Origin: Planctomycetota bacterium
GTDB lineage: Bacteria; Planctomycetota; UBA8108; SXIK01
Assembly (NCBI GenBank): GCA_965223265.1
Contig: OZ244999.1
Location: 1,728,001 to 1,792,000, forward strand
DNA length: 64,000 bases
Reading direction: 5' to 3'
Shown: positions 42,719-60,718 of the stretch, one piece after another
Numbering within the stretch: the first letter of the stretch is position 1
Layout: every line of letters starts with the position of its first letter
Notes under the pieces: model-generated
Told to the model about the DNA's origin: nothing
What the model saw: the letters and a program-made list of their open reading frames with translations, nothing else
Database searches by the model: none
Position numbers and translations under genes: made by a program

Positions 42719-42801
42719 GATGATCTTCTCCTGCCCTCCCTCATCGGATTCGAACAAGTCGCCCCTGAGTGAGAGGATACCAAAACCGAAAGAGCCAATG
42801 C

Positions 42802-45800: not shown

Positions 45801-46293
45801 TCAGATCCTTGACCGTATAGGCGTACTCGGCGTTGTTGAGCCGCCGAAGCACGACGGGGCCGGGATCGCCGGCGCTCGCCAGCGCCTCAGCGTCTATATA
45901 TTTCGTCACCCATGCGCGCAGTGTCGCGAGTTCCGCGGGTGTGGGCTGTGGAGCGTCCGGCGGCGGCATTTCGCCTCGTTTGAGCATATCGGCGACCTGC
46001 ACCCACGCCTTCGCTGCGCTGCGAACCTCGGCGAACGTGGTGAAGCTCTCGAGCTCGAGGTTGCCCTCGCGCTTCTCCTGGGAGTGACAACGGGTGCAGT
46101 ACTTGCTGACGAGTGGGAGAGCGTCAGTTGCATACGCTCGCGCCAACGCGTCGAAATCAGAGTCCGGCGGCTCCGCCGCTCTCAAGGCGGCCGCGATTCC
46201 CAGCACGACGAGCGCAGTACTCAGAGATAGCGTCAAGCGCGGCATAGCCCGCAGGGCAGAACTTCGAATGTTGTTTGTTGCCGTCGTGGTCAT
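42802..46293 (-). CDS. DUF1592/DUF1587/DUF1588 planctomycete cytochrome-c-containing protein
   Basis: CTRCH...MPP, RRLNNAEY, ELANRLSYFLWSGPPD, RTSPILRGNWV, CASCHQRIDPFGFALE, LLGYAIGR. Adjacent to the DUF1552 gene, the usual pairing. Confidence 0.9.
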   Translation of the reverse strand: MTTTATNNIRSSALRAMPRLTLSLSTALVVLGIAAALRAAEPPDSDFDALARAYATDALPLVSKYCTRCHSQEKREGNLELESFTTFAEVRSAAKAWVQVADMLKRGEMPPPDAPQPTPAELATLRAWVTKYIDAEALASAGDPGPVVLRRLNNAEYAYTVKDLIGVDIDPTRGFPTDSAAGEGFTNTGNALVMSPALLRKYLDAGEHIAQHAVLLPDGFRFSPNSTRRDWTDEILAAIRAFYERFTESSNLGVGSAVGNIEVHRDTRLGRAGRLPLERYFTATLAERTALTSGKKTLKAVAREYRLNARYLKTLWSHLIGTDASLLLDELRMKWRQADASDAAAIAGEVAAWQKGLWTFGPVGLIGRQGSPRRWMEPIDPVATRIDLRLSFPAPPAAKANEAENRAQATARRDTRNIDDGEINAASPMPLVVSLVVTDAGDGNASDFVVWKRPRLVANDQPDILLREVRARASIAAPSPRSDTKSDEDGYGLDPALFGRHPDGNTIDPESICVQAPSVITFRLPAAIASGRDLVTAAVLHHPTGNEGSVQVELVRGVPDQAPGLLPSSVVVKFSRVTHVFSDRREVTHSRPILVDERSAARSRFESAFATHRRLFPAALCYTQIVPVDEVLTLALFYREDDHLVRLMLDSTQRAALDRLWDELHYVSQSAFQRVDALEILLEVMQGSPQFDAVRSLRTAFRDDARRFEEQLIDSERDHVHALVDFAAWAYRRPLAPVEEQELRALYGQLRHQGMTHDEAIRLGLSRVFVSAPFLYKLEAATSGEKSPTPVTTWELANRLSYFLWSGPPDDELRDAAARGSLHTDTVLIAQARRMLTDARVRRLATEFVCQWLHIYEFDQLDQKSDKHFPEFAALRAGIYEEAIRFFTDLLQRDASLLTLLNADYTFVNSALAEFYALDPAASRARVDTSIDADADDDVSERRANGNNDGAWRRVEGMRRYGRGGILGLAAILAKQSGASRTSPILRGNWVSEVLLGEKLPRPPQDVPELPADELTTEGLTVRELVAKHTSDPNCASCHQRIDPFGFALETFDAIGRRRDMDLGGRPIDTQATLPDGTSVRGLDGLRDYLLTQRRPAFVRQFCRKLLGYAIGREIQLSDRPLLETMEERLVHRGYRLSAAVEAIVLSDQFRTIRPAGRRDAKF

Positions 46294-46661
46294 GACGGCG
46301 GTCCCTTCTTTTCGGTGGGAGTTTCGTTGTCGAAGAATTCGTTCGGGCGTTGAAAGATCCCGATGGCGAGACAGCCGTCTGGACTATGCGCCGTATGTAC
46401 GGAGTCCCGTGCGCGCCAGACAAAGTTGCCGGCTGTGCAGACGCCGTCGCCATCGACCAGACTGCCCTCGAGGACGAACGTCTGCTCGATTCCCGTGTGG
46501 CGGTGGAGCGGGAGCGTCGCCCCAGGGTCGAGCCGAAAAAGAGCGGTAAAGGCGCCGCTTGCTTCGTCACGCCAAAGCATCTTTGTGTGAACACCCGGGA
46601 AGTCGCTTGACTGCCACTCGAGGTTACTCACATCGACGTAGTGAGATGCGTTTTTCGCCAT
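46290..46661 (-). CDS. ChrR-like cupin domain protein
   Basis: PGATLPLHRHTGIEQTFVLEGSL...GNFVWR...HTAHSPDGC. Start placed at ATG 46661. Confidence 0.85.
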   Translation of the reverse strand: MAKNASHYVDVSNLEWQSSDFPGVHTKMLWRDEASGAFTALFRLDPGATLPLHRHTGIEQTFVLEGSLVDGDGVCTAGNFVWRARDSVHTAHSPDGCLAIGIFQRPNEFFDNETPTEKKGPPS

Positions 46662-46982
46662 AGCGGTCTGTAGAAGATATGACCAAGGAACCAAACTCGA
46701 GGATAAATCAAGTCTATGTCGCCGGCGGCTGGAACGAAAGAGCGCGAGTCGAGGGCTTGTCGAAAAGTCAGCAAGTTCGTCGGCGTTTCGGCGCCCGCGT
46801 CTCGAGGTCAATGACCCGTCTCTGCCCTGCATCCATACCCCTGCCGCTTCTCTGCCTGATCTTCGTTGGCTTCTGATGAAAGATCTCAAGAAGAGTTGAA
46901 CAAAAGGAAACCAAGTCAACGAAGGAAGGCCGTCCAAAGGAGCAAGCACACGCCGTGTGCCGTCCGGTCTGGCACACTCCCA

Positions 46983-47066
46983 CCCCATTGTTGCGAAAGA
47001 GAAGCACTTCAAGACCGTGCGCGATGCGATTGCGACTGCGATTACGTGGGGCGTATCTGACTCCGC
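46983..47066 (+). repeat. Dispersed intergenic repeat copy (core + hexamer arm + ATCTGACTCCG)
   Basis: CCCCATTGTTGCGAAAGAGAAGCACTTCAAGACCGTGCGCGA, followed by GATTGC/GACTGC hexamers and ATCTGACTCCG as at 33125. Confidence 0.8.
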
Positions 47067-47090: not shown

Positions 47091-48281
47091 CTACTCTGTG
47101 TCGCCGCGTCCCGGGTCTCGGCGTCCCCGAAGAGACGCTGCGATCGCGTCCCGTGCGACCCGAAACGGTCGTATGGCGTAGTAGAGTGGTTCGAGGGACC
47201 TGGGTAGTTTCACGAACGCACGATCCTTCGCTCCCGGCGCAAACGCCTTTCGAGCCCAGTACTGCGTGGCGTAGATCGTTCGGTAGTAGTAGTAACGAGC
47301 TTTGTCTTTGCTGCCACCGACAAAAACGCGCCGATCAATATCGCTCCGCCACGGACGAGCGATGACGCGCTGGCGGATTTGTTCTGTCGCAATGCGATTT
47401 TTCGGGTCGGAAGCGACGCCCGCCTCAACCTTCTCTGGCAGCTCTGCGTTCAGAAGTCGACTAATGAGGGACAGCGCTAGACTCACGCTTCCACCGTTGG
47501 CCGATTCTTCAACGATACGTTCGATATCGACCTCGGGATGCGCGCGAACCAGCTCCGCAAGGTCACAGATCTTCGCCAAACGGCTGCGCCCTTCCCAATA
47601 CTCCTTGCCGATTTGCACCGAGAGGGAGTCGAGCAAATGGTCGGAGCGTAGATTTCGCACTCGACTGCCGGCGAAAGATTCCTGAACCGCGCCATCCCAC
47701 AGTGTGTCGAACGATATTGCGGCGGCGAGGAACTTAGGTGCGAGCCCTTTGTGTAGATCGACCTTAACCTCGCCGCGCAAGAACGTCTGCTCGTAGTCGT
47801 AGAATCCGACGAGTTTGAACCCTGCGTCGAGAAAGATCGCTGACGCCTTGCGAAAGTCTCGCGGATGAACCAAGAGGTCGAGGTCCCAGCATTGACGGAG
47901 TCCTATATCTCCATAGGTAAGTTGCGCCAGCAGCGGGCCTTTGAACGGGAGAGCGCGGATGCCGTGGCTCGCGAATAGATCAAGTAGCGAGATCAAGTTC
48001 TCTGCCAGAAACTGATTGCGCTCGACGTTGGAACTGTATAGCTCGCTGAGCTTAGTCAGAACCTCGCCCGGAACATCACCCGGGCACGCAGAATTGAGGC
48101 TGTTGTACAAAAGAAGGCTGACACGGTTGCGATCGGCAACTGCGAAGAAGCGTTCCCAGTCAATCCCACTCCTTGCCAGCTCGCGAACCCGCTCCGCTGT
48201 CGACGGAGCCAAATTGCAGCGTGCGGAGCTAAAGAATAGCTCGATCTCGTTCGGTTCGAGTGAGACTGTCGTCTCTGGCAT
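47091..48281 (-). CDS. Nucleotidyltransferase family protein (NTP_transf_5-like)
   Basis: IDWERF N-domain, FKGPLLAQLTYGDIGLRQCWDLDLLV, VDLH, RLAKICDL. ATG 48281 avoids overlap with wzt. Confidence 0.85.
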   Translation of the reverse strand: MPETTVSLEPNEIELFFSSARCNLAPSTAERVRELARSGIDWERFFAVADRNRVSLLLYNSLNSACPGDVPGEVLTKLSELYSSNVERNQFLAENLISLLDLFASHGIRALPFKGPLLAQLTYGDIGLRQCWDLDLLVHPRDFRKASAIFLDAGFKLVGFYDYEQTFLRGEVKVDLHKGLAPKFLAAAISFDTLWDGAVQESFAGSRVRNLRSDHLLDSLSVQIGKEYWEGRSRLAKICDLAELVRAHPEVDIERIVEESANGGSVSLALSLISRLLNAELPEKVEAGVASDPKNRIATEQIRQRVIARPWRSDIDRRVFVGGSKDKARYYYYRTIYATQYWARKAFAPGAKDRAFVKLPRSLEPLYYAIRPFRVARDAIAASLRGRRDPGRGDTE

Positions 48282-48370
48282 GATGATCTCGTCTGCTGCG
48301 CATGTGCACCAAAACCCATGGGACTGAGAAGTGACATTGTCGCCTTGGATGGATTCCGGTATGGGCCGCG

Positions 48371-50755
48371 TCAAGACGTCTGTGGCGACAACAGCGTGGA
48401 CACAAGCTCGGCAGCAGTTGTCGTGCTTTCGTATGTCTCTTGACCAAGTTCGCAGCGGTAACACGGCACCTGCTCAGTCAGCTGAAGCACCCGTGTTTCA
48501 ACATCCGAGCTGGATGATTGCCGCCCATTCGTTGTGCGTGGAACAAAAACGTCAGAGCTCTTCTTCTCCTGGTTGATAGCGAACAGGCCTGAGCGAAGGT
48601 CGTCAGCGGCCACCTCTTTCGAAACGCGCTGGAGTTTCATGCGGCCAGGGCGTCGCGTGATGCTCGGGAACACTATGGCGTGTGCCTTCGCTTGGGTTGC
48701 AGGCTCAACGTCCATGAGATCGTGAAACTGTGCGGGGCTTAGTCCGAATTTTCCGTTGTCCCAAGGTTTTGTTGCGGTGGTGCCCTGGGCGCGCAGCTCG
48801 TCGCGATGCATCCGGAAGTTGTAGCCGCCAGAGACAAGCGGCTCTCGGAGACCAGGGATCAGATCTACCGTTGGCTCGCGTATCGTGACGATCGTCGGCA
48901 TACCCCGAAGCATCGGGGGAGCGGAATCCAGGTCGACGAAGACTCTGTCGTTTGCGATGCAGGACACCCCTGGATGTCGCATCGCGTGGATCAAAAGTGT
49001 CGTCTTGGCGGAGCGTTTAGGGCCGGCAAGCACGACACCTCGGTCTCCGACCGCGAAAGCAGATCCATGGACAAACAGGCCTCCAGCGTCCTGTCCATGG
49101 TTCATTGCGAGTTCTCGAACGACTCGCATGAGCGGTGAACGTGTTTTGCGGTCGAATGATGTGGCGACGATCTCGATATCGCTGGAGTCCCTAAGCAGAT
49201 AAAACACGTTGAAGGACTCATCGAACAGCGCAAGTTCGACCGACGAGTCGTTCCACCGCGGTAGTTGGATCATTTGGCTATCGAGAGAAAATGCGTTCTC
49301 GGTGCCGCCAGCCGGGCCTTGCTTCGCCAGTTGCTCGTGGTGCTTCGGGTCAACGGAGAGCTTCACATGAGCATGGCAGCTCTTCTCCGCAACGAGCTGA
49401 AAGTGAGGGCACAGAAACTCCTCGAGCCAGACAAGATGAGACTCGTACGCGCTTGATACCTGAATTCGCAGATCCCCGTAGGCGAAATGCCTATCGGCTG
49501 CAACAGCCCCATCGGCAGCGAGCGTCGATTCGTCTACATCTCGAGTGTTCCAACTATGTTCTATCAGGCAGTCCCCGATCCCAGCCGGTGGCAAGCGCCC
49601 CGTCAAGTAGAAGTCTCCTCGTTCGACTTGGAACCTTGCCGCATTCGCCATCTCGCAAACTACTCGAGACCCGATCCGGCATTCTATGTTGAGCCTGTAG
49701 AAACCAGGCATTAGCGGAAGTTTTTCGAACTCGCACAAGAACTCACCTCGAGACCCGGAAGCATCTATGGACTCTTCGACAGCGCTGCTGTCGCAGATGG
49801 CAACCGGTTGGTGGTTTTGGTTCAGGATCGTCAGGCTTACGTGGGCGCCTTCGACTCGCGGTCTGTCAGTGGCGTGAAAACCCAGGGCAATCACACCGCG
49901 CTCGCCTGTCGTGAGCGCGGAGACTTCCTCGTGCTTCTGGTTTAGAAGGCGGGTGTGAGTCAGTCGAAACCCGTTCGCGTCGGCATCCGACTGAGCTTCA
50001 AACGAGGTTAAGCTTGACTGCTTGCGGTTCGAAAACGTCGTTTCGAGGTACGTCTGCACGACTTCGCCAGCTTTCCCTTCAGCCTTGACTTGGCCGCGAT
50101 CCATCCAGAGTGCACGTTTGCAGTGCGTCGTGATGACTGACATGTTGTGTCCGACGAAAATGACCGTGCGGCCCTGGTGGGTGATCTCATCCATCTTGCG
50201 AATGCACTTGTCGCGAAACGCAGCATCGCCGACCGCAAGAACTTCGTCGACCAAAAGTATTTCTTGATCGAGGTGCGCTGCTACGGCGAAACCGAGTCTG
50301 ATCTTCATGCCGCTCGAGTAGCGCTTGATCGGTGTGTCCAAGAACTCCTCGACGTCGGAGTAATCGACGATCTCGTCGAACTTTTCTTTGATTTCGGATC
50401 GCGGCATGCCGAGCAAGGCGCCATTGAGGAAAATGTTCTCGCGGCCGGTCAGTTCAGGGTGAAATCCAGTTCCGGCTTGCAGCAGCGAGCCGACGCGCCC
50501 GAACATTTCGGCACGTCCACTGTTGGGTCGCGTGATCCTGCCGAGAACTTTTAACAGCGTGCTCTTTCCCGCGCCGTTCGATCCGACGATGCCGAACATC
50601 TCGCCGTGTTCAACTTCGAAGGAGACGTCCTTGAGCGCCCAAAAGTAGTCTCTGCCTTTCCCAAGCCGCAGGGCGGCGATCAAGCTGCCGTGCTGATCCA
50701 CCCCCTTACGGTAGCGCTTGCTGATCTTGCGGACGCTGACGGCTATACGACTCAT
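48371..50755 (-). CDS. wzt: Polysaccharide ABC exporter ATPase (Wzt) with Wzt C-terminal domain fused to an HPr-kinase-like P-loop domain
   Basis: FWALKDVSF, GSNGAGKST, GFHPELTGRENI, YSSGM, DEVLAVGD. Wzt_C-like LPLMPGFY. From about aa 420: VHGSAF...GPKRSAKTT...ANDRVFV. Confidence 0.88.
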   Translation of the reverse strand: MSRIAVSVRKISKRYRKGVDQHGSLIAALRLGKGRDYFWALKDVSFEVEHGEMFGIVGSNGAGKSTLLKVLGRITRPNSGRAEMFGRVGSLLQAGTGFHPELTGRENIFLNGALLGMPRSEIKEKFDEIVDYSDVEEFLDTPIKRYSSGMKIRLGFAVAAHLDQEILLVDEVLAVGDAAFRDKCIRKMDEITHQGRTVIFVGHNMSVITTHCKRALWMDRGQVKAEGKAGEVVQTYLETTFSNRKQSSLTSFEAQSDADANGFRLTHTRLLNQKHEEVSALTTGERGVIALGFHATDRPRVEGAHVSLTILNQNHQPVAICDSSAVEESIDASGSRGEFLCEFEKLPLMPGFYRLNIECRIGSRVVCEMANAARFQVERGDFYLTGRLPPAGIGDCLIEHSWNTRDVDESTLAADGAVAADRHFAYGDLRIQVSSAYESHLVWLEEFLCPHFQLVAEKSCHAHVKLSVDPKHHEQLAKQGPAGGTENAFSLDSQMIQLPRWNDSSVELALFDESFNVFYLLRDSSDIEIVATSFDRKTRSPLMRVVRELAMNHGQDAGGLFVHGSAFAVGDRGVVLAGPKRSAKTTLLIHAMRHPGVSCIANDRVFVDLDSAPPMLRGMPTIVTIREPTVDLIPGLREPLVSGGYNFRMHRDELRAQGTTATKPWDNGKFGLSPAQFHDLMDVEPATQAKAHAIVFPSITRRPGRMKLQRVSKEVAADDLRSGLFAINQEKKSSDVFVPRTTNGRQSSSSDVETRVLQLTEQVPCYRCELGQETYESTTTAAELVSTLLSPQTS

Positions 50756-50758
50756 GGA

Positions 50759-51643
50759 CTACACCAGATCAGCAATGGAATGTTCGGTGCGGCGAAAAAC
50801 CATTGCGCTGACGGCGACGAGAATACCAATCACGAGCGCCGTGACCCCGAGCCTTAGGTCGGGCGCTCTGCCGCTACCGACGAGCGCCCATCGAAATCCT
50901 TCGATGACGCCGTTCATGGGGTTGAGTTCATAAAGCCAGAGCAGTTGCTTGGGTATCTTGTCCTGGAGGAGACTTGCAGAATAGACAACTGGAGTACCGT
51001 AAAACCAAAGCTTGATGAAGTAGCCTCGAAAGTAGCTCACATCGCGGAAGCGCGCGTAGAGAGCTGCTAGCAGAAGACCAACCACAGTCGAAAGCGCCAT
51101 CGTCATGGCCAACAGGAACGGGAGCGCGAGTATTCGTGATGTGAGTGGAAAATCGTACCAAAGGACAAGCGCGATCAAAATGCCGAACGATAGCGTGAAA
51201 TCGATGAGAGCCGTGCCGATTTCAGCCAGCGGGAGAAGAAGACGGGGGAAGTAGATCCTCGTAATCATCCCTTGATAGCGAACAAAACACTCAGTACTGC
51301 GTGTCACCCCGTCATCGAAGAGCTGCCAGGGAAGTAGAGCCGAGTAGACGAAGATGGGATAAGGGACGCCACCGTCGGTTGGGAGCCCAGCCACACCGCC
51401 CAAAATGACACTGAAGAGGACCATTCGTAGAAACGGGACCAAGACAAACCAGAACGGCCCGAGAGCTGTCTGTCGATAGCGCATTTTGACGTTACGCCAC
51501 AGGAGCACCCATAGCACGTGCCGGGAGTGAAACAGTTCCCGCAAGTCGAGTGCTTGCCAAAAAGTCGCCGGTTCAATGACGATCGTCGGATGCGCGTCTT
51601 GCCTAGGTGCGGTCGAAGAGCTCGTCGTATCTGCGCGTGTCAT
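50759..51643 (-). CDS. wzm: Polysaccharide ABC-2 exporter permease (Wzm)
   Basis: RYRQTALGPFW, IYFPR, RFRDV, YGTPVVY, LNPMNGVIEGFRW. Multiple TM helices. Lies 3 bp upstream of wzt. Confidence 0.92.
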   Translation of the reverse strand: MTRADTTSSSTAPRQDAHPTIVIEPATFWQALDLRELFHSRHVLWVLLWRNVKMRYRQTALGPFWFVLVPFLRMVLFSVILGGVAGLPTDGGVPYPIFVYSALLPWQLFDDGVTRSTECFVRYQGMITRIYFPRLLLPLAEIGTALIDFTLSFGILIALVLWYDFPLTSRILALPFLLAMTMALSTVVGLLLAALYARFRDVSYFRGYFIKLWFYGTPVVYSASLLQDKIPKQLLWLYELNPMNGVIEGFRWALVGSGRAPDLRLGVTALVIGILVAVSAMVFRRTEHSIADLV

Positions 51644-51739: not shown

Positions 51740-52435
51740 TCACGTCGTGGAGGGGTGTGTGATCGCAAAGCGGAGATCTTGATTGTCAACAGGTGTCTTC
51801 CAAGTGCTGCGGACCTCTGGAAACTCGAGCAAGCGAATTTCCAGTCGAGTGGCGATCCAGCCGAGCGACCAATCGAAGCTTGCGAGTCCGACTCGCTGCG
51901 CGCGCTGAGCGAGGATCTCCCAGTATTGTGACTCCGTCCGTCGCGCAGAGGGGGTCGCGAAGTCTGCAAGGTTGAGAAGTCCGGAGTCGAAGATCTCGTT
52001 GGCAACATCGATGGTGAACCCCATGCATCCGCCCTGGATGGATGTGCAACCGGCGGAGTTCTGAAGCGTTCCGAAGTGTGAGTTGCGTCTAGGTAGAAAC
52101 TTGAAGCGTCTATGCACCGCCGAGTCTGGGTCGAGTTTGAAGAGAAAATCCGTTGGTTCAAGTCGAAAGAGTTCGAACATTCTCGCAACCGCACGAGCAC
52201 CGTTCTCCACAGTGAAGACTCGATCCTCGGGGAAATACTCGACGTTGTACCGCGAGACGAAGGAGGCGTGTCGTGGATCGTCGTCGCCATCTGAGCGCAC
52301 GATGACTCTCGAGTCGGGAAAGCTGCTGCGTAGGCGGCGGAGACAAAGGTCGGCCGCCTCGTGGTCGCGGTAGAGCTGCAGATAGAACGTGATGTCGGAA
52401 TCACAGTAAGACGTGTTGTCGCAGTTTTCGTTCAT
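51740..52435 (-). CDS. Putative GT-A fold glycosyltransferase
   Basis: FYLQLYRD...LRRLR...VIVRSDG, DxD-type FKLDPD, IQGGCMG. Start placed at ATG 52435 (ORF extends to 52534). Confidence 0.6.
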   Translation of the reverse strand: MNENCDNTSYCDSDITFYLQLYRDHEAADLCLRRLRSSFPDSRVIVRSDGDDDPRHASFVSRYNVEYFPEDRVFTVENGARAVARMFELFRLEPTDFLFKLDPDSAVHRRFKFLPRRNSHFGTLQNSAGCTSIQGGCMGFTIDVANEIFDSGLLNLADFATPSARRTESQYWEILAQRAQRVGLASFDWSLGWIATRLEIRLLEFPEVRSTWKTPVDNQDLRFAITHPSTT

Positions 52436-52611
52436 GACCAGCAGAGCGCTGAGCAGCCGATTGACCTCACCTGGTGTTTTGACCCAGCGCGGCACACAGG
52501 CGTCCAATTCTCGGAGATTCCCTCTCGGCGTCAATAGCGCTTTCGGCCAGCTGCGGCTGTGCTCGGTACCCCAATTTTACCGAAGATCTACGCTGAATGT
52601 CTCTCCGTCTA

Positions 52612-52965: not shown

Positions 52966-54888
52966 ATGTGCGGAGTCGTAGGGTACCTCCTGACGTCAGA
53001 CAGGGTCGGCAACGTTGAGCCGCTCGTCGCCGCTCTGCGCGCGATGAAACATCGCGGTCCTGACGACGAGGGACTCACGCTGATCGACCCCCTCTCTGGG
53101 AGGGCGACAGACTTTATCGGTGATTCTTCGGCGTCTGGCGTCGCTGTCTCACAGCATGTCGGTGAGGCACGTGAGACGCGACATCGCCTGGCTTTGGGGC
53201 ATCGGCGGTTCTCCCTCGTCGACCTGGGACCGCTCGCCCACCAGCCATTCTGGACAGAGGATCGCTCCGTTTGTGTCGCGTTCAACGGTGAGATCTACAA
53301 CTACGTCGAGTTGCGCTCGGAGCTCGAAGGAGAAGGGTTTAGGTTTCGTACGACATCGGACACTGAAGTCCTTGCTGTCGCCTACCAAGCTTGGGGCGTC
53401 GATTGCTTCTCACGCTTCAACGGGTTTTGGGCTTTGACGCTCTATGACGCGAAGCGTCGAAGTTTGCTACTTGCTCGAGATCGTCTTGGTAAGGCTCCGC
53501 TCTATTTCACGTCTATAGGCGGTAATCTCTACTGGGCATCTGAGATCAAGGGGCTTGTTGCGCTCGTCGGTGGGTCGATGTTCACCGTCAGCGAGCAAGC
53601 TGTGATCGATTTCGTGACGTGGCGCCGCCGTGATCTATTTCACAAAACGTTCTACAACGAGATCGATTCGTTTCCTCGCGCCGCTTACGCGTGGGTGAAG
53701 CCCGACGGGAGTTTCGAAGCCGTGGAGTTTTGGCGCCTTCCCGAGCAGCGCCTGTCACCGCGCGCGATCTCGACGTTTGAGGCCAGTGAGCGGCTGCGCG
53801 AGCTCGTCACCGACGCGACCCGACTTCGTCTGCGCGCGGATGTTCCTGTCTCGGTGCAGGTCAGCGGTGGCATGGACTCGTCGAGCTTGCTGGCGATCGC
53901 TGCGGGAATCGCGCCAGGTGTCGCTGCCTACACGGTGACGTTTCCAGGAGCGGAGGTTGACGAGGAGCCATTCGCGCGAGCCGTGGCCGAGCGCTGCGGT
54001 GAGTCGGTTGAGTACCACGTCCTGGATCCACCGGCAGATGACCTCCTGCGCCGTGCCGACGAGTACGTCCATCTGATGGGAGAGCCGTTTCACTCGCCCA
54101 ACCAATTCACGAACCATCAGATTTGGTCGACGATGACGGCGCATGGGATCAGGGCGGTACTTTACGGCGCCGGCGGCGACGAGCTGTTTGCGGGGTATCG
54201 TGGGAGATACTTTCAACCCTACCTAAGCCATCTGCTGAAGTCCGGGCATCCTTTGCGTTGTCTGCGTGAGTTCTTCGCGTGCAGCGAGCTCCAACCGGGT
54301 GAGTTCGGATTCGACTATCTGCGGCGAGCTCGCCAACTGCTACGTCGACACCGTCTCTATCCCGTGCCAACCGAATTGGACCCGTTTCGAGCTCCGACAG
54401 AGGCGACGGCGCGCGCCGGACCGTCAAACGATATTCGCCAGTTGATGACTGACTTGATGACCGACTGGCAGATGAATTACTGGCTGCGCATTGACAATCA
54501 AAACAGCATGGGGGTGCCGCTCGAGTTGCGCCTTCCTTTGCTGGATTTTCGGGTCGTCGAGTTCGCGTTCGAGTTGCCGCTTGATTACCTCATGCGAGAC
54601 GGTTGGATGAAGTGGGTTCTACGGAACGCGATGGAAGACCTCCTTCCTCCCTCGGTCACGTGGCGTCGGAAAAAAGCAGGGTTTCCGTTTCCTCTGCGCA
54701 GCTGGCTTGAGCGCTATGAGGAGCGCCTTGCTGAATTGCTTGAGGGGCTTGATTGCCCATACATCGACATGAACGCGTGGCATCTTGGTTTTTCTGATTT
54801 GGCGCAGAGGAGCCCAGATCACCTTTGGTGTGTCACATCGCTTGGGCTTTGGTGGAAGCGATGTGTGCAGGGCGAGCAGCTCTGCTGA
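52966..54888 (+). CDS. asnB: Asparagine synthase (glutamine-hydrolysing)-family amidotransferase
   Basis: MCG N-terminal nucleophile, HRGPD, FNGEIYNY, SDTEV, ARDRLGKAPL, SGGMDSS, GAGGDELFAGY, ELRLPLLD. Confidence 0.92.
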   Translation: MCGVVGYLLTSDRVGNVEPLVAALRAMKHRGPDDEGLTLIDPLSGRATDFIGDSSASGVAVSQHVGEARETRHRLALGHRRFSLVDLGPLAHQPFWTEDRSVCVAFNGEIYNYVELRSELEGEGFRFRTTSDTEVLAVAYQAWGVDCFSRFNGFWALTLYDAKRRSLLLARDRLGKAPLYFTSIGGNLYWASEIKGLVALVGGSMFTVSEQAVIDFVTWRRRDLFHKTFYNEIDSFPRAAYAWVKPDGSFEAVEFWRLPEQRLSPRAISTFEASERLRELVTDATRLRLRADVPVSVQVSGGMDSSSLLAIAAGIAPGVAAYTVTFPGAEVDEEPFARAVAERCGESVEYHVLDPPADDLLRRADEYVHLMGEPFHSPNQFTNHQIWSTMTAHGIRAVLYGAGGDELFAGYRGRYFQPYLSHLLKSGHPLRCLREFFACSELQPGEFGFDYLRRARQLLRRHRLYPVPTELDPFRAPTEATARAGPSNDIRQLMTDLMTDWQMNYWLRIDNQNSMGVPLELRLPLLDFRVVEFAFELPLDYLMRDGWMKWVLRNAMEDLLPPSVTWRRKKAGFPFPLRSWLERYEERLAELLEGLDCPYIDMNAWHLGFSDLAQRSPDHLWCVTSLGLWWKRCVQGEQLC

Positions 54889-54934: not shown

Positions 54935-56161
54935 GTGAGTTCCCCTGGTCTGCTCCGAGAGAGTTCCAGCATGAGTTCCCCGAACATCCAGCGCTCTTCA
55001 CTTGAAACTCGACGTCGTCATGACGAAACGTTCGTCACCTTTGAGTACGAGGGGTTGCGCGTGCGCATGACGAGCCCAGTCGAGGCTCCTCTGGACTGGC
55101 TAAGGGAGTTTCTATCTCCTTTTTTTGACATCACCACTTCGAAGACAAATTCAGAGGTGACCTGGGACTACGAGGTGCGATTGGTGATCAGCCGCCAGCG
55201 CCATGAACAGTATGGGCGGCTCGGGGATCCGTGCGGCGAGGTCGACTGTTTTGCGGTCGACGCCCACGTGATTCGATTGCCGTGGTGGAGTCTGAGTCAC
55301 GCGCAGAGCGTTGTTTTCGACACGGCGGCACGTGTGTTTTACGTCCTTCACCCTGAAGAGTCGTTGATCGAGGTGGTGGCGGATGGCGACAGCATGCGCG
55401 TGCGCACACGAACAATGCGCGTGGTGCGTGAAGTTGCCATGCACCACGGAGTTTGTCGGGGTGGATTCTTCATCCACGCTTCGGCATTCGATGTTCATGG
55501 CCGAAGTGTGATGATCTCGGCTCCGACCAACGGCGGCAAGACGACTTTGTTGACGCATGCCCTCAGCCATCCCGAGACGCGATTTCTTTCGAACGATCGA
55601 GTCTTCGTCCGATTCGATGGTGATAGCGTCATCTTTCGGGGGATGCCTGCGGTCGTCTCCATGCGCGAAGGGATGCTAAATTTTTTCCCTGATCTACGTG
55701 ACAAAGTGAGGCAGAGTCGCTTCTTTTACTGCACTCGCGATGACGAATTGTTCGAGTGGATTCCAGACCGCCTGCGTCCCGACGATCGCGGGCGTTATCT
55801 GGTCGCGCCGCATCAGTTCTGTGCGCTGCTGGGGACTGCCGCCGTGGCTCAGGCGCGAGCTGCAGCCATCGTCTTCCCCCGAATCGTTGAAGGGTCCGAT
55901 GTTTTTCGTTTAACTCGAATCGATCCGGACGTGGCTTCGACCCTCCTGAGCGCGGCGTTGTTTCATACCAACGAGTGGCGTAAGAACAACGAGATTTTTT
56001 CGAGAGTCCGTCCGGACTGCGAACAACCGGCTATGGATGTGAGAGCCCTTGGTCGTCGCCTCGTGGCTCGAGTTCCATGCTATAGCTGCGATCTGAGTCG
56101 TGACGCCTACCGTCTCGACGGCGGCGCGAGCGATTTTGTGCGAGCGGTATTGGAGACGTGA
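54935..56161 (+). CDS. HPr-kinase-like P-loop kinase
   Basis: FIHASAF...SAPTNGGKTT...FLSNDRVFV. Colinear with the C-terminal domain of Wzt. The start may be ATG 54971. Confidence 0.75.
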   Translation: MSSPGLLRESSSMSSPNIQRSSLETRRRHDETFVTFEYEGLRVRMTSPVEAPLDWLREFLSPFFDITTSKTNSEVTWDYEVRLVISRQRHEQYGRLGDPCGEVDCFAVDAHVIRLPWWSLSHAQSVVFDTAARVFYVLHPEESLIEVVADGDSMRVRTRTMRVVREVAMHHGVCRGGFFIHASAFDVHGRSVMISAPTNGGKTTLLTHALSHPETRFLSNDRVFVRFDGDSVIFRGMPAVVSMREGMLNFFPDLRDKVRQSRFFYCTRDDELFEWIPDRLRPDDRGRYLVAPHQFCALLGTAAVAQARAAAIVFPRIVEGSDVFRLTRIDPDVASTLLSAALFHTNEWRKNNEIFSRVRPDCEQPAMDVRALGRRLVARVPCYSCDLSRDAYRLDGGASDFVRAVLET

Positions 56162-57015
56162 AACAGTCGCAGGACGGTGATCCAAGAGGCTCCGAAGACA
56201 CCGGCGCACAGGTCCGGGAGAAGTCGATCTCCGCAATGCTTCGCGTCAAGGACGAAGGGCAGTTCCTCTATGCCGCGGTGCGCTCGGTGATCGATTGCGT
56301 CGACGAAGTCGTCTTGGTTGACAATATGAGCACCGACGAGACTCCACGGACCATAGAGCGGTTGGGTTCTGAGTTCCCAGGAAGAATTCGAAGCTACGCG
56401 TATCCATTCGAAATCCGGCGTGTCGGGCGAGAGCATTCTGAGCTCGCCACATCGACGGAAGGCACCAGCTCGCCACACCTCTCTTCAAATTACTACAATT
56501 GGTGCCTCGCGCGATGCTCGTGCGATTACACCTTGAAATGGGACGGCGACATGATCGCGCTGCCGACATTTCACGATGCCCTTGCGGCATGGCGTAAATC
56601 ACAGGACGAGGTGATGGTCGTGCACGGCGCGAACGTTCATCGAAATTTAAAAAACCTCATGCAGGCAAAGTCCGCTGAACGACAACCGTTTCTCGAGGCG
56701 TCGGACACTTCGAGCTTTCCTCTCTGGGCGCTCTCCCTCACCTATGACTACCCAGAACCGAGACTTTTTCCGCGGCGTGTTGCATCGTATGACTCGCACC
56801 TTGGTTGGACACAATGTCTCGACATACCCAAGGCTGTTGAACGCCTCGCTCACCGCGTCGAGAGTCCTTGCTTCTTACACATGAAGTTCTGCAAACGCGA
56901 TCCGTTTAGCAACTACACCAAGGAACTGGCCGCTGCGATCGCGGCCAATATCGATGTCGGTCCGCCTCTGCCAGAGGGGTGGAGGCAGATACTCGAGGAA
57001 TGGGGCATCGCCTGA
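56158..57015 (+). CDS. GT-A glycosyltransferase (GT2/CgtA-like)
   Basis: ISAMLRVKDE, VVLVDNMSTDET, YYNWCL, KWDGD. GTGA overlap with the kinase gene (translational coupling). Confidence 0.8.
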   Translation: MKQSQDGDPRGSEDTGAQVREKSISAMLRVKDEGQFLYAAVRSVIDCVDEVVLVDNMSTDETPRTIERLGSEFPGRIRSYAYPFEIRRVGREHSELATSTEGTSSPHLSSNYYNWCLARCSCDYTLKWDGDMIALPTFHDALAAWRKSQDEVMVVHGANVHRNLKNLMQAKSAERQPFLEASDTSSFPLWALSLTYDYPEPRLFPRRVASYDSHLGWTQCLDIPKAVERLAHRVESPCFLHMKFCKRDPFSNYTKELAAAIAANIDVGPPLPEGWRQILEEWGIA

Positions 57016-57041: not shown

Positions 57042-59000
57042 CTATTTCGTGAAAGTGCCCCGGATCACGTCCCAGAGACGAGAGATGCTTCGCTCCATGG
57101 AATAGTTCTCCGAGACGTGTTCTCGTCCTCTCTTTCCCATCTGCTGCGCGAGCTGGGGATCTTTGATGAGCTTTGCCATGTGATTCGCCATGGAGCCGAC
57201 GTCTCTTTCGTCGACAAGGAATCCCGATTCTCCGTCAAGGACAGCTTCTTTGATGCCTGCGTGCCGGGTGGCGACGACTGGCACAGCACAGGCGCCTGCC
57301 TCAAGCACCGATACCGGAGTCCCCTCAGAGTTGCCGTCGAGCGCTGTAATCGAATGCTGCACAAACAGTCTCGCACCGCGAAGTGCGGTGATGATCTCTG
57401 GGTGTGCGGCTCGGCCACAGATCGTGACTTTGTCGGACACGTCGAGATGTTCGGCGAGCCTCACGAACGTCTCCATGATCGGGCCGTCGCCGAACATCGT
57501 CAGCGTCGCCTCGGGGCACGACTCGAGAAGGCGATGGAACGCGAGGAGCGTGAGGTAGGGCGCTTTCTTGTCCACGAAGCGGCCGATCGCGACGCAGCGA
57601 GCTGGATTCTCCGCGGGATTCGTGGCGCGGAATTGCGAGATATCAACACCGCACGAATTGACATGAACTTTCTCAGCTGGCGCTCCAAGACGGATGAGCT
57701 GCTCGCGCATCTCACTTGATACTGCTATGAACGCTGCCGCGGTTCGAAACAGATCCGCGTACTCTTCTCTGTGTGTCTCGAGGGTTGCGGCTGCGTACGC
57801 GTCGTAACCGTGGAAGTGTACGATCAGTGGAACATCTTCGGCGCAGCAGGCGTCTGCGACCGTGACAGCTACCGTTCCGAATTCCGCCAAAACGGCTTCG
57901 ACCTGTTCTCGTTTGAGGTAGCGGCGGAGCGCCCGAGTGCCGAACGCGCTTCGCCAGGCGAATTCCAGTGCTAAGGCGCGCCCGGCACGTTCGGCCATCG
58001 TGAGCAAGGGCAAACCCGTTTCCTCGGAGAGTCCATTGCGGCAGTTGACGACCTTGACTCGTGCGGGGAGCTCTTCGATGTGAGCGAGTACGAATGTTTG
58101 CGTATACTCAAACGGCACCGCTCTCGCCACGCAAATGACTGGTCGTCTCGTCGGTTCCGGCTGCGGATCGTCGAGCGATCGGGCTGTCGCGGTCTCGGGC
58201 TTTCGCGGAAGGTGGTGCTCCCACACAGACTGCTGGAGTCGCTTGAGTTGCTTGGCCCTCCCAGCCGTGATGAGATCGAACGCGCCCAGGCCCGCCAGCC
58301 AAGGTGGAGCCGAACCTGACATGAGGCGCGCACGGTAGGAAGTCGACAAACTGATTTCGTCGAGATTGTACGCCCATTTATCGCGCACAACGTGGTTGAT
58401 CTGGGCGTCGATCGGAGACCGACAATCGTCTGGGACCCAGAGCATGAGGACCCGGTCGGGGTGTTGTTGTGCGAACTCGTGAATTCGGTCTCCGTACAAT
58501 CGCCAGCGCTTGAAAGCTCCGTGCGCTCGCTGCAGCGGAGTCCAATTTGAAGTCTTGATCTTGACGCGTCGGAGAATCGACCACGCGACGGTGGCTGGGT
58601 CGCGCAGGACGAAAACCCAACGGGCATTAGGAAAGAGACGACTCCACGCCCGCAGGCGAAGGACGAGCCCCGGGTCTCTCAGACCCCAAGCGTTCTGCTC
58701 CCGTGACTTTTTCTGCAGAAGCTCAAGCAACTGACGTTCTTCGTCCGGGCTGAACTCGACATCTTCCGGCACTCGCGCGTGCAGCCACGTGTGTGCGTCT
58801 GAGATTCCGGTCCCCTTCTGAAGCCACTGGCTGACGTCCCTGTCCACAAATTGACCGCCGACTTCGTTGTGCCCGATCGGAGCCAAGTTGTCGCCGAAGC
58901 GCAGTCCAGCGTCGGAGAAAGCACGGGCCACGACAGACACGCCCGAGGCAGGCATGCCGGCAATGAGAAGTGGAGAGGCGTGCTCAACAGTCCGATTCAA
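57042..59000 (-). CDS. Sulfotransferase-like domain fused to a GT4 (WcaL-like) glycosyltransferase
   Basis: N-terminal half: LLIAGMPASGVS, WGLRDP, FVLRDP..VAWS. C-terminal half: HFHGYD, IGRFVDKKAP, EGTPVSVLEA, VVATRHAGIKE. Confidence 0.82.
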   Translation of the reverse strand: MNRTVEHASPLLIAGMPASGVSVVARAFSDAGLRFGDNLAPIGHNEVGGQFVDRDVSQWLQKGTGISDAHTWLHARVPEDVEFSPDEERQLLELLQKKSREQNAWGLRDPGLVLRLRAWSRLFPNARWVFVLRDPATVAWSILRRVKIKTSNWTPLQRAHGAFKRWRLYGDRIHEFAQQHPDRVLMLWVPDDCRSPIDAQINHVVRDKWAYNLDEISLSTSYRARLMSGSAPPWLAGLGAFDLITAGRAKQLKRLQQSVWEHHLPRKPETATARSLDDPQPEPTRRPVICVARAVPFEYTQTFVLAHIEELPARVKVVNCRNGLSEETGLPLLTMAERAGRALALEFAWRSAFGTRALRRYLKREQVEAVLAEFGTVAVTVADACCAEDVPLIVHFHGYDAYAAATLETHREEYADLFRTAAAFIAVSSEMREQLIRLGAPAEKVHVNSCGVDISQFRATNPAENPARCVAIGRFVDKKAPYLTLLAFHRLLESCPEATLTMFGDGPIMETFVRLAEHLDVSDKVTICGRAAHPEIITALRGARLFVQHSITALDGNSEGTPVSVLEAGACAVPVVATRHAGIKEAVLDGESGFLVDERDVGSMANHMAKLIKDPQLAQQMGKRGREHVSENYSMERSISRLWDVIRGTFTK

Positions 59001-59284
59001 GATTTGTCCTCAAAGTGGCTGCAGAAAGGTTCGAGATTATTCCTCAACCTTACAGCTCGATCAAGCATGGTGAAGGAGGTTCGTCGACACTCAGCGGCGC
59101 TTGGCGGACGGTACGTTTGATGTCGACAAACTTCCGGACCGACCGGTAGAGGACTCACGGGAGCGAGTCGACGTTATGTCGCCTGTTGCCACCCTGTTCG
59201 ATTCTCGTTAGGATTCGAGGCCAGTTGGCGGAGAACGAGCGCGCGAGTCGGTTCTGCAGTTCGCTGAGCGCGGTGAGGTGTTTT

Positions 59285-60718
59285 GTGGCTCAGATCACCC
59301 TTTTGGCGATCGCATGCGTGATTGGTATTGCGGTTGCGTATGTGCCGTCCCTTCGTCGACGCGTCGCGGCGTTCTTCGCCGCGAAATCGCATCCGGTCAA
59401 CTTAGCGATCTTTCGCATCGCCTTCTTCTGGCGTTTCTATGAAAAAGTCGACCCGGATCTAACTGAAGTCTACAGCTCGTTCCCTGACGAGCTGAGAGTT
59501 CCGATCGCCGGACTCGGGCCCTTAAACACGCTGCTCCCGCTCTCGACTGAGCTGGCGACCGTGAGTTGCTTCCTGTTGCAGGTGGCGTGCGTGTTTGCTG
59601 CGGTCGGTTTCTTCTCGCGCGCCTCTGCGTTGGTTGCGACCGTCGTTGGATTCTACGTTTTGGGGGTGCCGCAGCTCTTTGGCAAAGTCAATCACGTCCA
59701 CTACTACGTGTGGTTTGCGGCCATCCTGGCTGCGAGCCGCTCGGGTGACGCGCTGTCGGTCGACGCGATTTTGTCACGCTGGCGACATCCGGAGCGATTT
59801 CCCCTTCGTGAATCAACGATCTATGGCCTGCCGATTCGTGTGGTGTGGTTGTTGATTGGGATCATCTACTTCTTTCCGGGATTCTGGAAGCTGTGGTCCG
59901 GCGGGTTGGAATGGGCGTTCTCCGAGAATCTTAAGTGGATGCTCTGGCGCAAGTGGATCGATGGGCTCGGCTGGCCTCCGCCGTTTCGGATCGACAACTA
60001 CCCTCTTCTCTACCAAGGCGCTGCTGCGGCGGTCATCGTCTTTGAACTCGCCTTTGTGTTCTTGCTCTTCTTTCCGCGTTTGCGCTTGATCGCGGTGGCT
60101 GGCGGGTTGGTTTTTCATCACATGACGCGCGTCTTGATGGCTATCTATTTCAAAACGCTTGTCTACTGTTACGTCGTATTCATTGATTGGTACGGCATCT
60201 ATTCATGGCTTCGACGACGTTTGTCGCGTCGGCAAGAACCTGCTTTTGCAGAGGACTCGCATTCGCCACCGTGCTCTCGGCTCCTCGTGATGGTGGCTTC
60301 TTTTTTCGTCTTCGGGAATATGTTGTTCGGCGCACTCCACCTGGCGCGCGCTTGGCCCCTCGCCTGCTTCCCGACGTTTTCCGCCCTGGCATCGCCGTCG
60401 CGTACGAGCCTCAGGGTCAAGCTGGACTTCGGTAGCGGTGAAACCGAGTTGCTGGCGAACCGCCAGTTCGGTCAGCATCTACCTATCGAACGATTCACTG
60501 TCCAGGTGCGCTACATCCTCACTCGGCCGGATGCTATGGAACGCGATCGGCTGCTCGAAGCGCTTTGGTCGGTTCTGCGCGAACGCGACCCGCGCTACTT
60601 TCGTGCTTCACGCATTGAGTTCTACGAAGTGGTCGAAACGACCTCTCCGGAGAGATGGGAAGAGAACCCATTGAGCGAGAAGCTCATTATGGAGGTTGAA
60701 TCGCCTCCACCTCCGTGA
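59285..60718 (+). CDS. HTTM-domain integral membrane protein (vitamin-K-dependent carboxylase-like membrane fold)
   Basis: LAIFRIAF, GKVNH, ALSVDA, IYFFPGFWKL, FELAF...FH, WPLACFPTFS. Multiple TMs. GTG 59285 follows GAGGTG (ORF extends to 59186). Confidence 0.7.
   Translation: MAQITLLAIACVIGIAVAYVPSLRRRVAAFFAAKSHPVNLAIFRIAFFWRFYEKVDPDLTEVYSSFPDELRVPIAGLGPLNTLLPLSTELATVSCFLLQVACVFAAVGFFSRASALVATVVGFYVLGVPQLFGKVNHVHYYVWFAAILAASRSGDALSVDAILSRWRHPERFPLRESTIYGLPIRVVWLLIGIIYFFPGFWKLWSGGLEWAFSENLKWMLWRKWIDGLGWPPPFRIDNYPLLYQGAAAAVIVFELAFVFLLFFPRLRLIAVAGGLVFHHMTRVLMAIYFKTLVYCYVVFIDWYGIYSWLRRRLSRRQEPAFAEDSHSPPCSRLLVMVASFFVFGNMLFGALHLARAWPLACFPTFSALASPSRTSLRVKLDFGSGETELLANRQFGQHLPIERFTVQVRYILTRPDAMERDRLLEALWSVLRERDPRYFRASRIEFYEVVETTSPERWEENPLSEKLIMEVESPPPP

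Follow-up and report, generated by a model that had tools for sequence, protein, structure and literature searches.

We describe a planctomycete gene, wzt-K, in which the ATPase subunit of a Wzm/Wzt-type ATP-binding cassette (ABC) exporter is joined in frame to a complete kinase-fold domain (K). The gene lies on the reverse strand at 48371-50755 of the window, a 64,000-nt stretch of a Planctomycetota bacterium (lineage UBA8108; SXIK01) taken from positions 1,728,001 to 1,792,000 of contig OZ244999.1 (assembly GCA_965223265.1). It is a single 794-aa open reading frame (ORF) on one 9.18-Mb contig, with an ATG start, no internal stops and normal codon-position GC along its length. Four parts are encoded: a Wzt ABC ATPase, a Wzt-type carbohydrate-binding domain (CBD), a linker and a complete HprK/PEPCK P-loop kinase-fold domain. 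An earlier note on this DNA had described one ORF of 794 aa with a nucleotide-binding domain (NBD), a Wzt_C-type CBD, a linker and an HprK-like domain; both the ORF and this layout hold, with limits that agree within a few residues. The AlphaFold models place three confidently folded modules within the ORF. Its features are as follows.

50045..50755 (-), Wzt NBD (aa 1-237); Pfam and PDB matches, intact ABC motifs, pLDDT about 90
49541..49978 (-), Wzt-type CBD (aa about 260-405); Wzt_C, all-beta model, Foldseek
49490..49540 (-), linker of 12-17 aa (aa 406-422, DVDESTLAADGAVAADR); placed by the ends of Wzt and K homologues
48371..49489 (-), K domain (aa 423-794, 372 aa), a two-lobed HprK/PEPCK-like P-loop kinase fold, followed by the stop codon; profiles and predicted structure
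49001..49024 (-), GPKRSAKT (aa 578-585), the K-domain Walker A, with Ala before Lys; family motif comparison

We tentatively propose, with somewhat less than even confidence, that wzt-K powers, as ATPase subunit, the Wzm/Wzt-type export of a lipid-linked glycan, that K would phosphorylate the glycan at the transporter, that the enzyme of the next gene (Pfam PF14907, NTP_transf_5) would decorate the phosphate, and that the CBD would read the result.

The Wzt half is readily recognized. Pfam ABC_tran matches aa 41-172 (E 1.3e-21), and the translated NBD contains a Walker A (GSNGAGKST), a signature (YSSGM) and a Walker B (LLVDE) motif as well as an H-loop. The NBDs of Wzt, TagH and TarH proteins in the PDB match this domain at E 1e-55 to 1e-64, and the full-length 404-aa Wzt of Aquifex aeolicus (8dku/7k2t) aligns to aa 13-362 (E 9e-64). 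The AlphaFold model of the NBD has a pLDDT of about 90.

The CBD is more divergent. Pfam Wzt_C matches aa 262-378 at E 6.3e-7 with 29.9 bits (curated cut-off 30.4), and a search of PDB sequences with the CBD region by itself matched no solved Wzt CBD. The sole close relative found for the region is in P0269, a 413-aa stand-alone Wzt with 54% identity to wzt-K across aa 1-410 and 40% in the CBD region; with 85% identity to P0269, the Wzt of locus L092 scores 32.3 bits and so clears the Wzt_C cut-off. In the full-length AlphaFold model aa 263-378 form an all-beta module (pLDDT 72-86). The top Foldseek matches of this model are full-length Wzt chains (403-412 columns, E 3e-34), with NBD-only Wzt chains (239 columns, E 1e-24) ten orders of magnitude behind. 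Because of the P0269 and L092 relatives, the all-beta module and the matches to full-length Wzt chains, we take the predicted Wzt-type CBD to be real. L092 has no K gene within 16.7 kb nor elsewhere in its genome. P0269 and the protein with the best K match (P0163) are both singletons, each known from one contig of 9411 nt. In a Rokubacteria metagenome-assembled genome (MAG), the gene directly after a K gene encodes 356 aa that include a PDZ domain and two stretches resembling Wzt_C (L023:11316-12386, +). This neighbor is uninformative about the wzt-K CBD because the two lack sequence similarity in BLAST (E 4.9).

The C-terminal part (aa 406-794) matched no Pfam family. NCBIfam HprK_rel_B (TIGR04355, HprK-related kinase B) matches it at E 8.3e-7 with 28.4 bits (cut-off 200), and HprK-related kinase A matches it faintly; the best HprK_rel_B score of any K-family member is 52.6 bits. 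Since the models for HPr(Ser) kinase/phosphorylase (HprK/P; PF07475 and TIGR00679) gave no match to the K domain at E up to 10, K is not an HprK/P orthologue. Aligned with hhalign to a genuine HprK_rel_B member (392 bits to its own model), the K profile reached 98.2% probability (E 3e-14) over 232 columns, a span that takes in the N-terminal 135 residues. K is thus a two-lobed sister family of TIGR04355 rather than a member of it, given 28 bits against a cut-off of 200.

The predicted structure agrees. The P-loop kinase fold that the earlier note had assigned to this domain is borne out by the AlphaFold model of K (pLDDT 92.9, pTM 0.92). In an exhaustive structural comparison, PEPCK ranked first (Z 13.8 over 306 residues, the whole model), followed by the HprK/P chains 1ko7, 1jb1, 1knx and 3tqf (Z 11.9-12.5), which align 136-139 residues within model positions 152-389 at a root-mean-square deviation of about 3 A; the best unrelated fold scored Z 5.3. 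Foldseek also matched the model to PEPCK (E 5e-9). At the level of sequence, the K profile gave marginal matches in the PDB (HprK/P of L. casei, E 0.016), in which the His, P-loop and NDR of the K family align to the His, P-loop and DDR of the L. casei enzyme. The HprK-like P-loop kinase fold therefore stands as a structural prediction.

K belongs to a large family. A scan of 1.84 billion representatives recovered 1272 at E up to 1e-3 (369 at E up to 1e-30), and 145 among the best 150 of these 1272 are stand-alone proteins of 243-416 aa. Many members carry the label PF27840, and a newer Pfam release may already catalogue part of the family. A 46-row alignment has 14 invariant residues, all 14 of which are kept in the fused copy. 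Among 154 K-family proteins surveyed for Walker A, 148 have a recognizable motif, and 146 of these have Gly before the Lys, as do all 44 other aligned members; the two with Ala are wzt-K and P0143. At the 39 columns that are at least 85% conserved (n = 44 others), the fused K deviates twice, at this Gly and at one conservative position, and the stand-alone paralogue in the window (Kpar) four times. Because the invariant residues are complete and deviations number only 2 of 39, the fused K is under constraint and not decaying, although its nucleotide handling may be altered. Branch lengths in a quick tree are 0.6 for the fused K and 1.15 for Kpar. Two quick trees disagree on strict sisterhood of the two copies: one makes them sisters (SH-aLRT 92), and the other places both in a clade of five (94) with the fused K nearest P0163 and P0012 (70).

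The junction reads as an end-to-end join of two complete proteins. Residues 1-410 of wzt-K align end to end with P0269, up to its second-to-last residue, the starts of stand-alone K proteins fall at positions 14-20 of the K piece, and about 12 extra residues (TLAADGAVAADR) lie between the end of Wzt and the start of K. Because Wzt and K are both complete and meet end to end, we propose that the fusion most likely arose through loss of a stop codon between adjacent wzt and K genes. The earlier note had asked whether reads would reveal a stop or frameshift at the junction, and contigs of four runs (one study, two samples) have neither. Logan contigs of three runs of one sample (X1-X3) each cover 48300-50800 unbroken, with 0 differences and 0 gaps, and a contig of a fourth run from the second sample (X4), also with 0 differences, connects 48862 to 49829. 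The assembly itself may have been built from these runs, and they exclude an assembly slip better than a strain-specific mutation.

No second Wzt-K fusion was identified in 5.8 billion protein clusters (searched by shared words), among the best 150 of the 1272 representatives, in 88 K loci or in 401 Planctomycetota genomes, in keeping with the earlier note, which knew of no described fusion of Wzt with HprK. K was absent from the 40 nearest genomes searched and present in 5 of the 401 Planctomycetota genomes, this one included. The 88 loci comprise 24 from species genomes, all MAGs and found with a 10-row alignment (Binatia, Gemmatimonadota, Rokubacteria, Acidobacteriota, Thermodesulfobacteriota and others), and 64 from metagenomes. 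Neighbors were scored with profiles built from the window genes and from annotated neighbors. Counts are rough because many loci are short and some are near-duplicates. The genes identified near K are listed here.

APH-type kinase, 38/88 loci
MsbA-like exporter with transmembrane domain (TMD) and NBD, 36/88 loci
PF14907 gene, 28/88 loci
Sulfotransferase-GT4 (glycosyltransferase family 4) fusion, 18/88 loci
GT2-like glycosyltransferase partner (GT2l), 11/88 loci
Wzm permease, 2/88 loci
unk264 (window gene without a family), 2/88 loci
HTTM-domain protein, 2/88 loci

The gene immediately upstream of K, in the 60 loci with enough sequence, is an exporter in 15, an APH-type kinase in 15 and a PF14907 gene in 5; immediately downstream (47 loci) lies a GT2-like gene in 8 and a PF14907 gene in 8. 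One Binatia MAG (L012) has consecutive genes for Wzm (43% identical to the window protein), an NBD-only Wzt (50% identical), PF14907 and K, and so represents the module in unfused form. A 1036-aa metagenomic protein (P0006) is an MsbA-like TMD-NBD exporter with a C-terminal K domain. Because its K sits elsewhere in the tree, P0006 is an independent exporter-K fusion, in another ABC class. The recurrent adjacency of exporter and K, together with the two independent fusions (P0006 and wzt-K), is the strongest support for a coupling of K to export.

Other arrangements of K were also seen. K is fused to APH-type kinases in P0008, P0010, P0011, P0091 and P0127, and another planctomycete (G352) encodes a 1243-aa protein in which an unassigned N-terminal part of about 560 aa is followed by an APH-type domain and then K (L118:6372-10103, +). 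The pair of K followed by a GT2-like gene is conserved (window 54935-57015, +; L011, L033-L035, L037, L040, L041 and L057), often after an MsbA-like exporter and with a sulfotransferase-GT4 fusion; the window holds that set plus the Wzt-fused copy. In a Gemmatimonadota MAG, a gene for phosphoenolpyruvate (PEP) mutase directly follows K (L015:11067-12050, +), and in L003, L006 and L043 2-hydroxyacid dehydrogenase domains lie beside or are fused to PF14907 genes. These neighbors hint at phosphonate or hydroxy-acid chemistry in some K contexts.

In the window, wzt-K is surrounded by the following genes.

50759..51643 (-), wzm, ABC-2 type permease of 294 aa; Pfam ABC2_membrane, E 2.6e-11
47091..48281 (-), PF14907 (NTP_transf_5) nucleotidyltransferase-fold gene; Pfam E 1.1e-49
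51740..52534 (-), unk264, upstream of wzm, up to 264 aa, GT-A-like by eye only; coding-typical codon-position GC
52966..54888 (+), AsnB-type glutamine amidotransferase, first gene of a divergent operon; TIGR01536, 359 bits (cut-off 267)
54935..56161 (+), Kpar, a second, stand-alone K gene of up to 408 aa; 36% identity to the fused K, E 9e-69
56158..57015 (+), GT2l, GT2-like glycosyltransferase; Glycos_transf_2, 23.2 bits (cut-off 23.3)
57042..59000 (-), sulfotransferase-GT4 fusion protein; Sulfotransfer_3 and Glycos_transf_1
59186..60718 (+), HTTM-domain membrane protein, possible cluster member; Pfam HTTM, E 1.4e-9

The stop of wzm lies 3 nt ahead of the wzt-K start on the same strand, and its product matches the NCBIfam model for galactan Wzm/RfbD at E 3e-21, below the cut-off. 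The PF14907 gene, which the earlier note did not mention, has a probable ATG at 48281, 90 nt past the wzt-K stop, although its longest ORF extends to 48464. Just downstream of it lies a ChrR-type cupin domain (46290-47012, -), which matches Cupin_7 at E 7.9e-21 and the anti-sigma ChrR model below its cut-off; the ORF has a long N-terminal stretch that looks non-coding. No Pfam or NCBIfam model matched unk264, homologues of which are encoded in K loci L029 and L052. The AsnB-type protein has an N-terminal MCG nucleophile and is nearer the exopolysaccharide amidotransferase model than the lasso cyclase model; a role as lasso cyclase was considered and dropped given this glutaminase start and its pass of the asparagine synthase model. 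Kpar, also absent from the earlier note along with its GT2 partner, lies about 4 kb from wzt-K; its homology begins near nt 55040, its Walker A reads APTNGGKT, and it matches HprK_rel_B at E 1.9e-6. Homologues of GT2l in L034 and L028 pass Glycos_transf_2 (34.3 and 29.4 bits). The sulfotransferase-GT4 protein is 41% identical to a K neighbor in L011 and has strong homologues in K loci L052 and L057, and homologues of the HTTM protein are found in K loci L041 and L051. Planctomycete-type gene pairs flank the region, PSCyt/PSD with DUF1552 at 41393-46293 (-) and PSD1 with DUF1501 at 60745-63980 (-), and likely mark the borders of the cluster. A scan for promoters and terminators gave counts like those of shuffled sequence.

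We predict that the proposed system would work in three steps. The K domain, at the cytoplasmic face of the transporter, would move a phosphate from ATP onto a glycan or glycolipid awaiting export; the PF14907 enzyme would add a further group to this phosphate; and the CBD of Wzt would recognize the finished end and license export, with tagging, checking and export all in one protein. The analysis establishes the architecture, folds, family and conserved neighborhoods and an intact junction, whereas kinase activity, substrate and step order are inferred. The setting is consistent with a glycan, as the cluster carries GT2-like, sulfotransferase-GT4 and AsnB-type amidotransferase genes. In the literature, the modified end of the chain is bound by the CBD of Wzt, and export is restricted to chains that have been terminated (PMC11231755, PMC9445017), and in pseudomycoidin a PF14907-type enzyme adds a hexose to a kinase-made phosphate (PMC8498205). 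Kpar and the GT2 partner of the divergent operon probably make a second phospho-linked decoration. The earlier note had proposed that chain-terminating phosphorylation, or else the reading of a phospho-cap, is tied physically to export. The coupling gains support from the exporter upstream of K in 15 of 60 loci, from P0006 and from L012, and the glycan substrate, the termination of the chain and the reading of a cap are carried forward here as conditional parts of the proposal.

Comparison with known systems shows both likeness and differences. As in the O-antigen transporters with a CBD (A. aeolicus 7k2t/8dku, E. coli O9a and K. pneumoniae O12), in which the CBD binds the chain-end cap and capped chains alone are exported, wzt-K has an adjacent ABC-2 permease gene. 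The NBD is 31% identical to that of A. aeolicus Wzt in Foldseek, and in both proteins a beta-rich CBD directly follows the NBD. Unlike the solved or described Wzt proteins that we found, wzt-K carries a 372-aa kinase-fold domain after the CBD. The logic proposed for K and PF14907 is that of WbdD (E. coli O9a) and ORF6 (K. pneumoniae O7), in which the kinase targets the end of the glycan, another enzyme alters the phosphate and the resulting structure is recognized by the Wzt CBD (PMC11231755, PMC3482155). However, the WbdD and ORF6 kinases have a protein-kinase/APH-like fold and are separate proteins with a coiled-coil ruler, whereas K has a P-loop HprK/PEPCK-like fold and is fused to the transporter, and the second enzyme is a methyltransferase in the known terminators but a nucleotidyltransferase-fold protein here. 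P0006 resembles wzt-K in that K is at the C-terminus of an ABC exporter ATPase, but is a type IV half-transporter that lacks a CBD. Members of TIGR04355 provide the closest profile to K, N-terminal lobe included. One true member, in L027 (G217; around 1486-2568, -), lies by eye between APH-like and ATP-grasp-like genes and a CofD-like gene rather than among exporters. This arrangement matches the NCBIfam 'GAK system'.

Several observations weigh against this export-coupled glycan phosphorylation. The Wzt_C score of wzt-K falls 0.5 bit below the Pfam cut-off, and the protein was missed in a genome-wide Wzt_C scan, which gave zero matches. The Walker A Ala stands where 146 of 148 relatives have Gly; by analogy with Ras G15A, a change of Gly to Ala before the Walker A Lys may weaken nucleotide binding. 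Wzm was identified in just 2 of the 88 K loci, so the Wzm/Wzt partnership is rare in the family, nearly all members of which are called 'hypothetical protein' in databases, with no known substrate for any of them. Lacking among the scanned ORFs of the window are an initiating phosphoglycosyl transferase, an obvious polymerase, a coiled-coil terminator and a WbdD-like protein. The full-length AlphaFold model has a pTM of 0.58, with low confidence at aa 381-415, and its domain-to-domain placement is unreliable. The sequencing data behind the junction check may be those from which the assembly was built. HprK-like kinases that have PF14907 and ABC partners and whose chemistry is known all act on peptides. 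Finally, the known chain-terminating kinases (WbdD and ORF6 of O7) have a protein-kinase/APH-like fold, not a P-loop fold (PMC11231755).

The alternative that survives best, although we consider it unlikely, was not raised in the earlier note: a phosphopeptide system of the type that makes peptides built by ribosomes and modified after translation (RiPPs). K would then phosphorylate a serine of a ribosomal peptide, PF14907 would decorate the phosphate and Wzm/Wzt would export the peptide, the sugar genes being no more than usual surroundings. HprK-like kinases put one or several phosphates on a serine of lasso or linear precursors (PMC8498205), and such a kinase, a nucleotidyltransferase and an ABC pump form the conserved tailoring and export triad of paeninodin-type lasso peptides and of linear polyphosphorylated peptides (LPPs; PMC8498205, PMC13381572), side by side in PadeK, PsmK/PsmN and LppK/LppN/LppD as they are at wzt-K. 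In the last of these, LppK, LppN and the pump LppD are a conserved core together with a RiPP recognition element (RRE) and a signal-peptidase-like enzyme, and these clusters are embedded in capsule loci (PMC13381572). The same gene order was observed in two control clusters of a Neobacillus genome (G235; L110:5556-12454 and L111:5775-10525), and the HTTM membrane protein of the window cluster would also fit.

The peptide systems bring an RRE, a precursor and a peptidase, and none of these was found in the window. Both Neobacillus controls plainly show every expected part: a kinase (315 aa in one and 261 aa in the other), a precursor, an RRE, a peptidase, a PF14907 gene and a pump. One control is a paeninodin-type lasso cluster with a 47-aa precursor that ends in Ser, and the other is an LPP-type cluster with an 82-aa precursor bearing the published YxxPxVLxHQxIxFET motif. 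At the locus of wzt-K, by comparison, PqqD (PF05402, E up to 1) matches two places in the genome, neither in the window, and the RRE, B2 and SpI queries match L060 alone among the 88 K loci, with zero matches in the window. The L060 match is a PqqD-like ORF (2214-2681, -; E 3e-6 to lasso RRE) about 1.5 kb upstream of K on the opposite strand; the closely related L059 has no RRE-like match. No conserved small ORF was identified in K neighborhoods, where the small-ORF clusters are antisense shadows of large genes, although the small-ORF, RRE and peptidase tests can miss hypervariable or very short precursors and distant peptidases. The kinases differ as well. K is related to the peptide-type kinases (261-315 aa in the two Neobacillus examples) at superfamily level alone, aligns to them over no more than the P-loop core (95%, 63 and 100 columns) and is nearer to HprK_rel_B (98.2%, 232 columns); its additional N-terminal lobe, conserved and about 135 aa long, is shared with HprK_rel_B and PEPCK. 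The Wzt here, moreover, bears a carbohydrate-binding domain.

Less probable still is a role in precursor activation, in which K, often with an APH-type kinase, would phosphorylate a small alcohol, hydroxy-acid or sugar and PF14907 would make a nucleotide-activated donor for phosphodiester decoration, the fusion doing no more than co-localizing supply with export. LicA/LicC are the model for such activation. This would suit the APH kinases, which are present in 38 of the 88 K loci, lie directly upstream in 15 of 60 and in several proteins form a fusion with K, as well as the 2-hydroxyacid dehydrogenase in 4 loci and the PEP mutase that adjoins K in L015. It would also suit the superposition of the whole K model on PEPCK (Z 13.8, 306 residues), a small-molecule kinase with an inter-lobe cleft, and the weak matches of K members to FomB, a phosphonate monophosphate kinase; PF14907 adjoins PEP mutase in one phosphonate gene cluster family (bioRxiv 10.1101/2021.04.07.438883). 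However, it is hard to see why a soluble enzyme should have been joined, in two independent events, to the C-terminus of an exporter ATPase (P0006 and wzt-K) or should directly follow exporter genes, and no APH gene was identified among the scanned ORFs of the window cluster.

We regard as rather improbable that the fused K is a catalytically weakened sensor, which would bind nucleotide, phosphate or the phosphorylated chain end and gate the ATPase while Kpar does the chemistry. The Ala of its Walker A (GPKRSAKT), at a Gly kept in 44/44 other aligned members and 146/148 overall, could be read in this way, as could the canonical A-x4-GKT of Kpar, and in A. aeolicus ATP hydrolysis responds to the binding of substrate by the CBD (PMC9445017). 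On the other hand, the fused K has lost none of the 14 invariant residues, among them the His, Lys-Thr and NDR matched to the catalytic motifs of HprK/P; compared with Kpar, its branch is shorter (0.6 against 1.15) and it deviates at fewer of the 39 conserved columns (2 against 4); and P0143 also has the Walker A Ala.

An artefact, in which a sequencing or assembly error erased a stop or shifted the frame between two genes, has next to no claim on our belief: although the join runs from complete Wzt to complete K, the fusion was seen in no other genome searched and the confirming runs all come from one study, possibly the source data, the contigs assembled independently from four runs and two samples agree letter for letter at the junction and show no indel there, the linker keeps the reading frame, and the ORF has normal codon-position GC throughout.

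We return to export-coupled phosphorylation of a glycan, and to what it would mean. A literature search, which left most subscription journals uncovered, found no paper joining 'Wzt' and 'HPr kinase', and nothing on glycan export was found in the literature on HprK-related or HprK-like kinases or PF14907 (NTP_transf_5). For glycan export by ABC transporters, the enzyme that marks the chain and the transporter that checks the mark have to date been described as separate proteins (PMC11231755). A natural fusion of marker and transporter would be a compact test case for the coupling of modification and export. We conclude that wzt-K extends the CBD-bearing Wzt exporters with a terminally modified substrate, and there is a fair chance that it points to an unstudied kinase family at ABC exporters. 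It would provide the first functional handle on this large family of kinase fold (1272 representative clusters), which in Binatia, Gemmatimonadota, Rokubacteria, Acidobacteriota and others is repeatedly found next to ABC exporters. The combination of HprK-like kinase, PF14907 and ABC pump is now taken as the mark of a peptide natural product (PMC8498205, PMC13381572), and the K family suggests that the trio may serve non-peptide substrates. In a broader and more doubtful version, the family would consist of unrecognized HprK/PEPCK-fold kinases that act on membrane-anchored substrates at the mouth of ABC exporters, and wzt-K would combine writer, reader and motor in one polypeptide, with capping and release that need no ruler and a phosphodiester cap made by a nucleotidyltransferase-fold enzyme. 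If this is true, K paired with MsbA-like pumps in various soil phyla would point to a route for phosphorylated glycolipids or glycans that is widespread and as yet undescribed.

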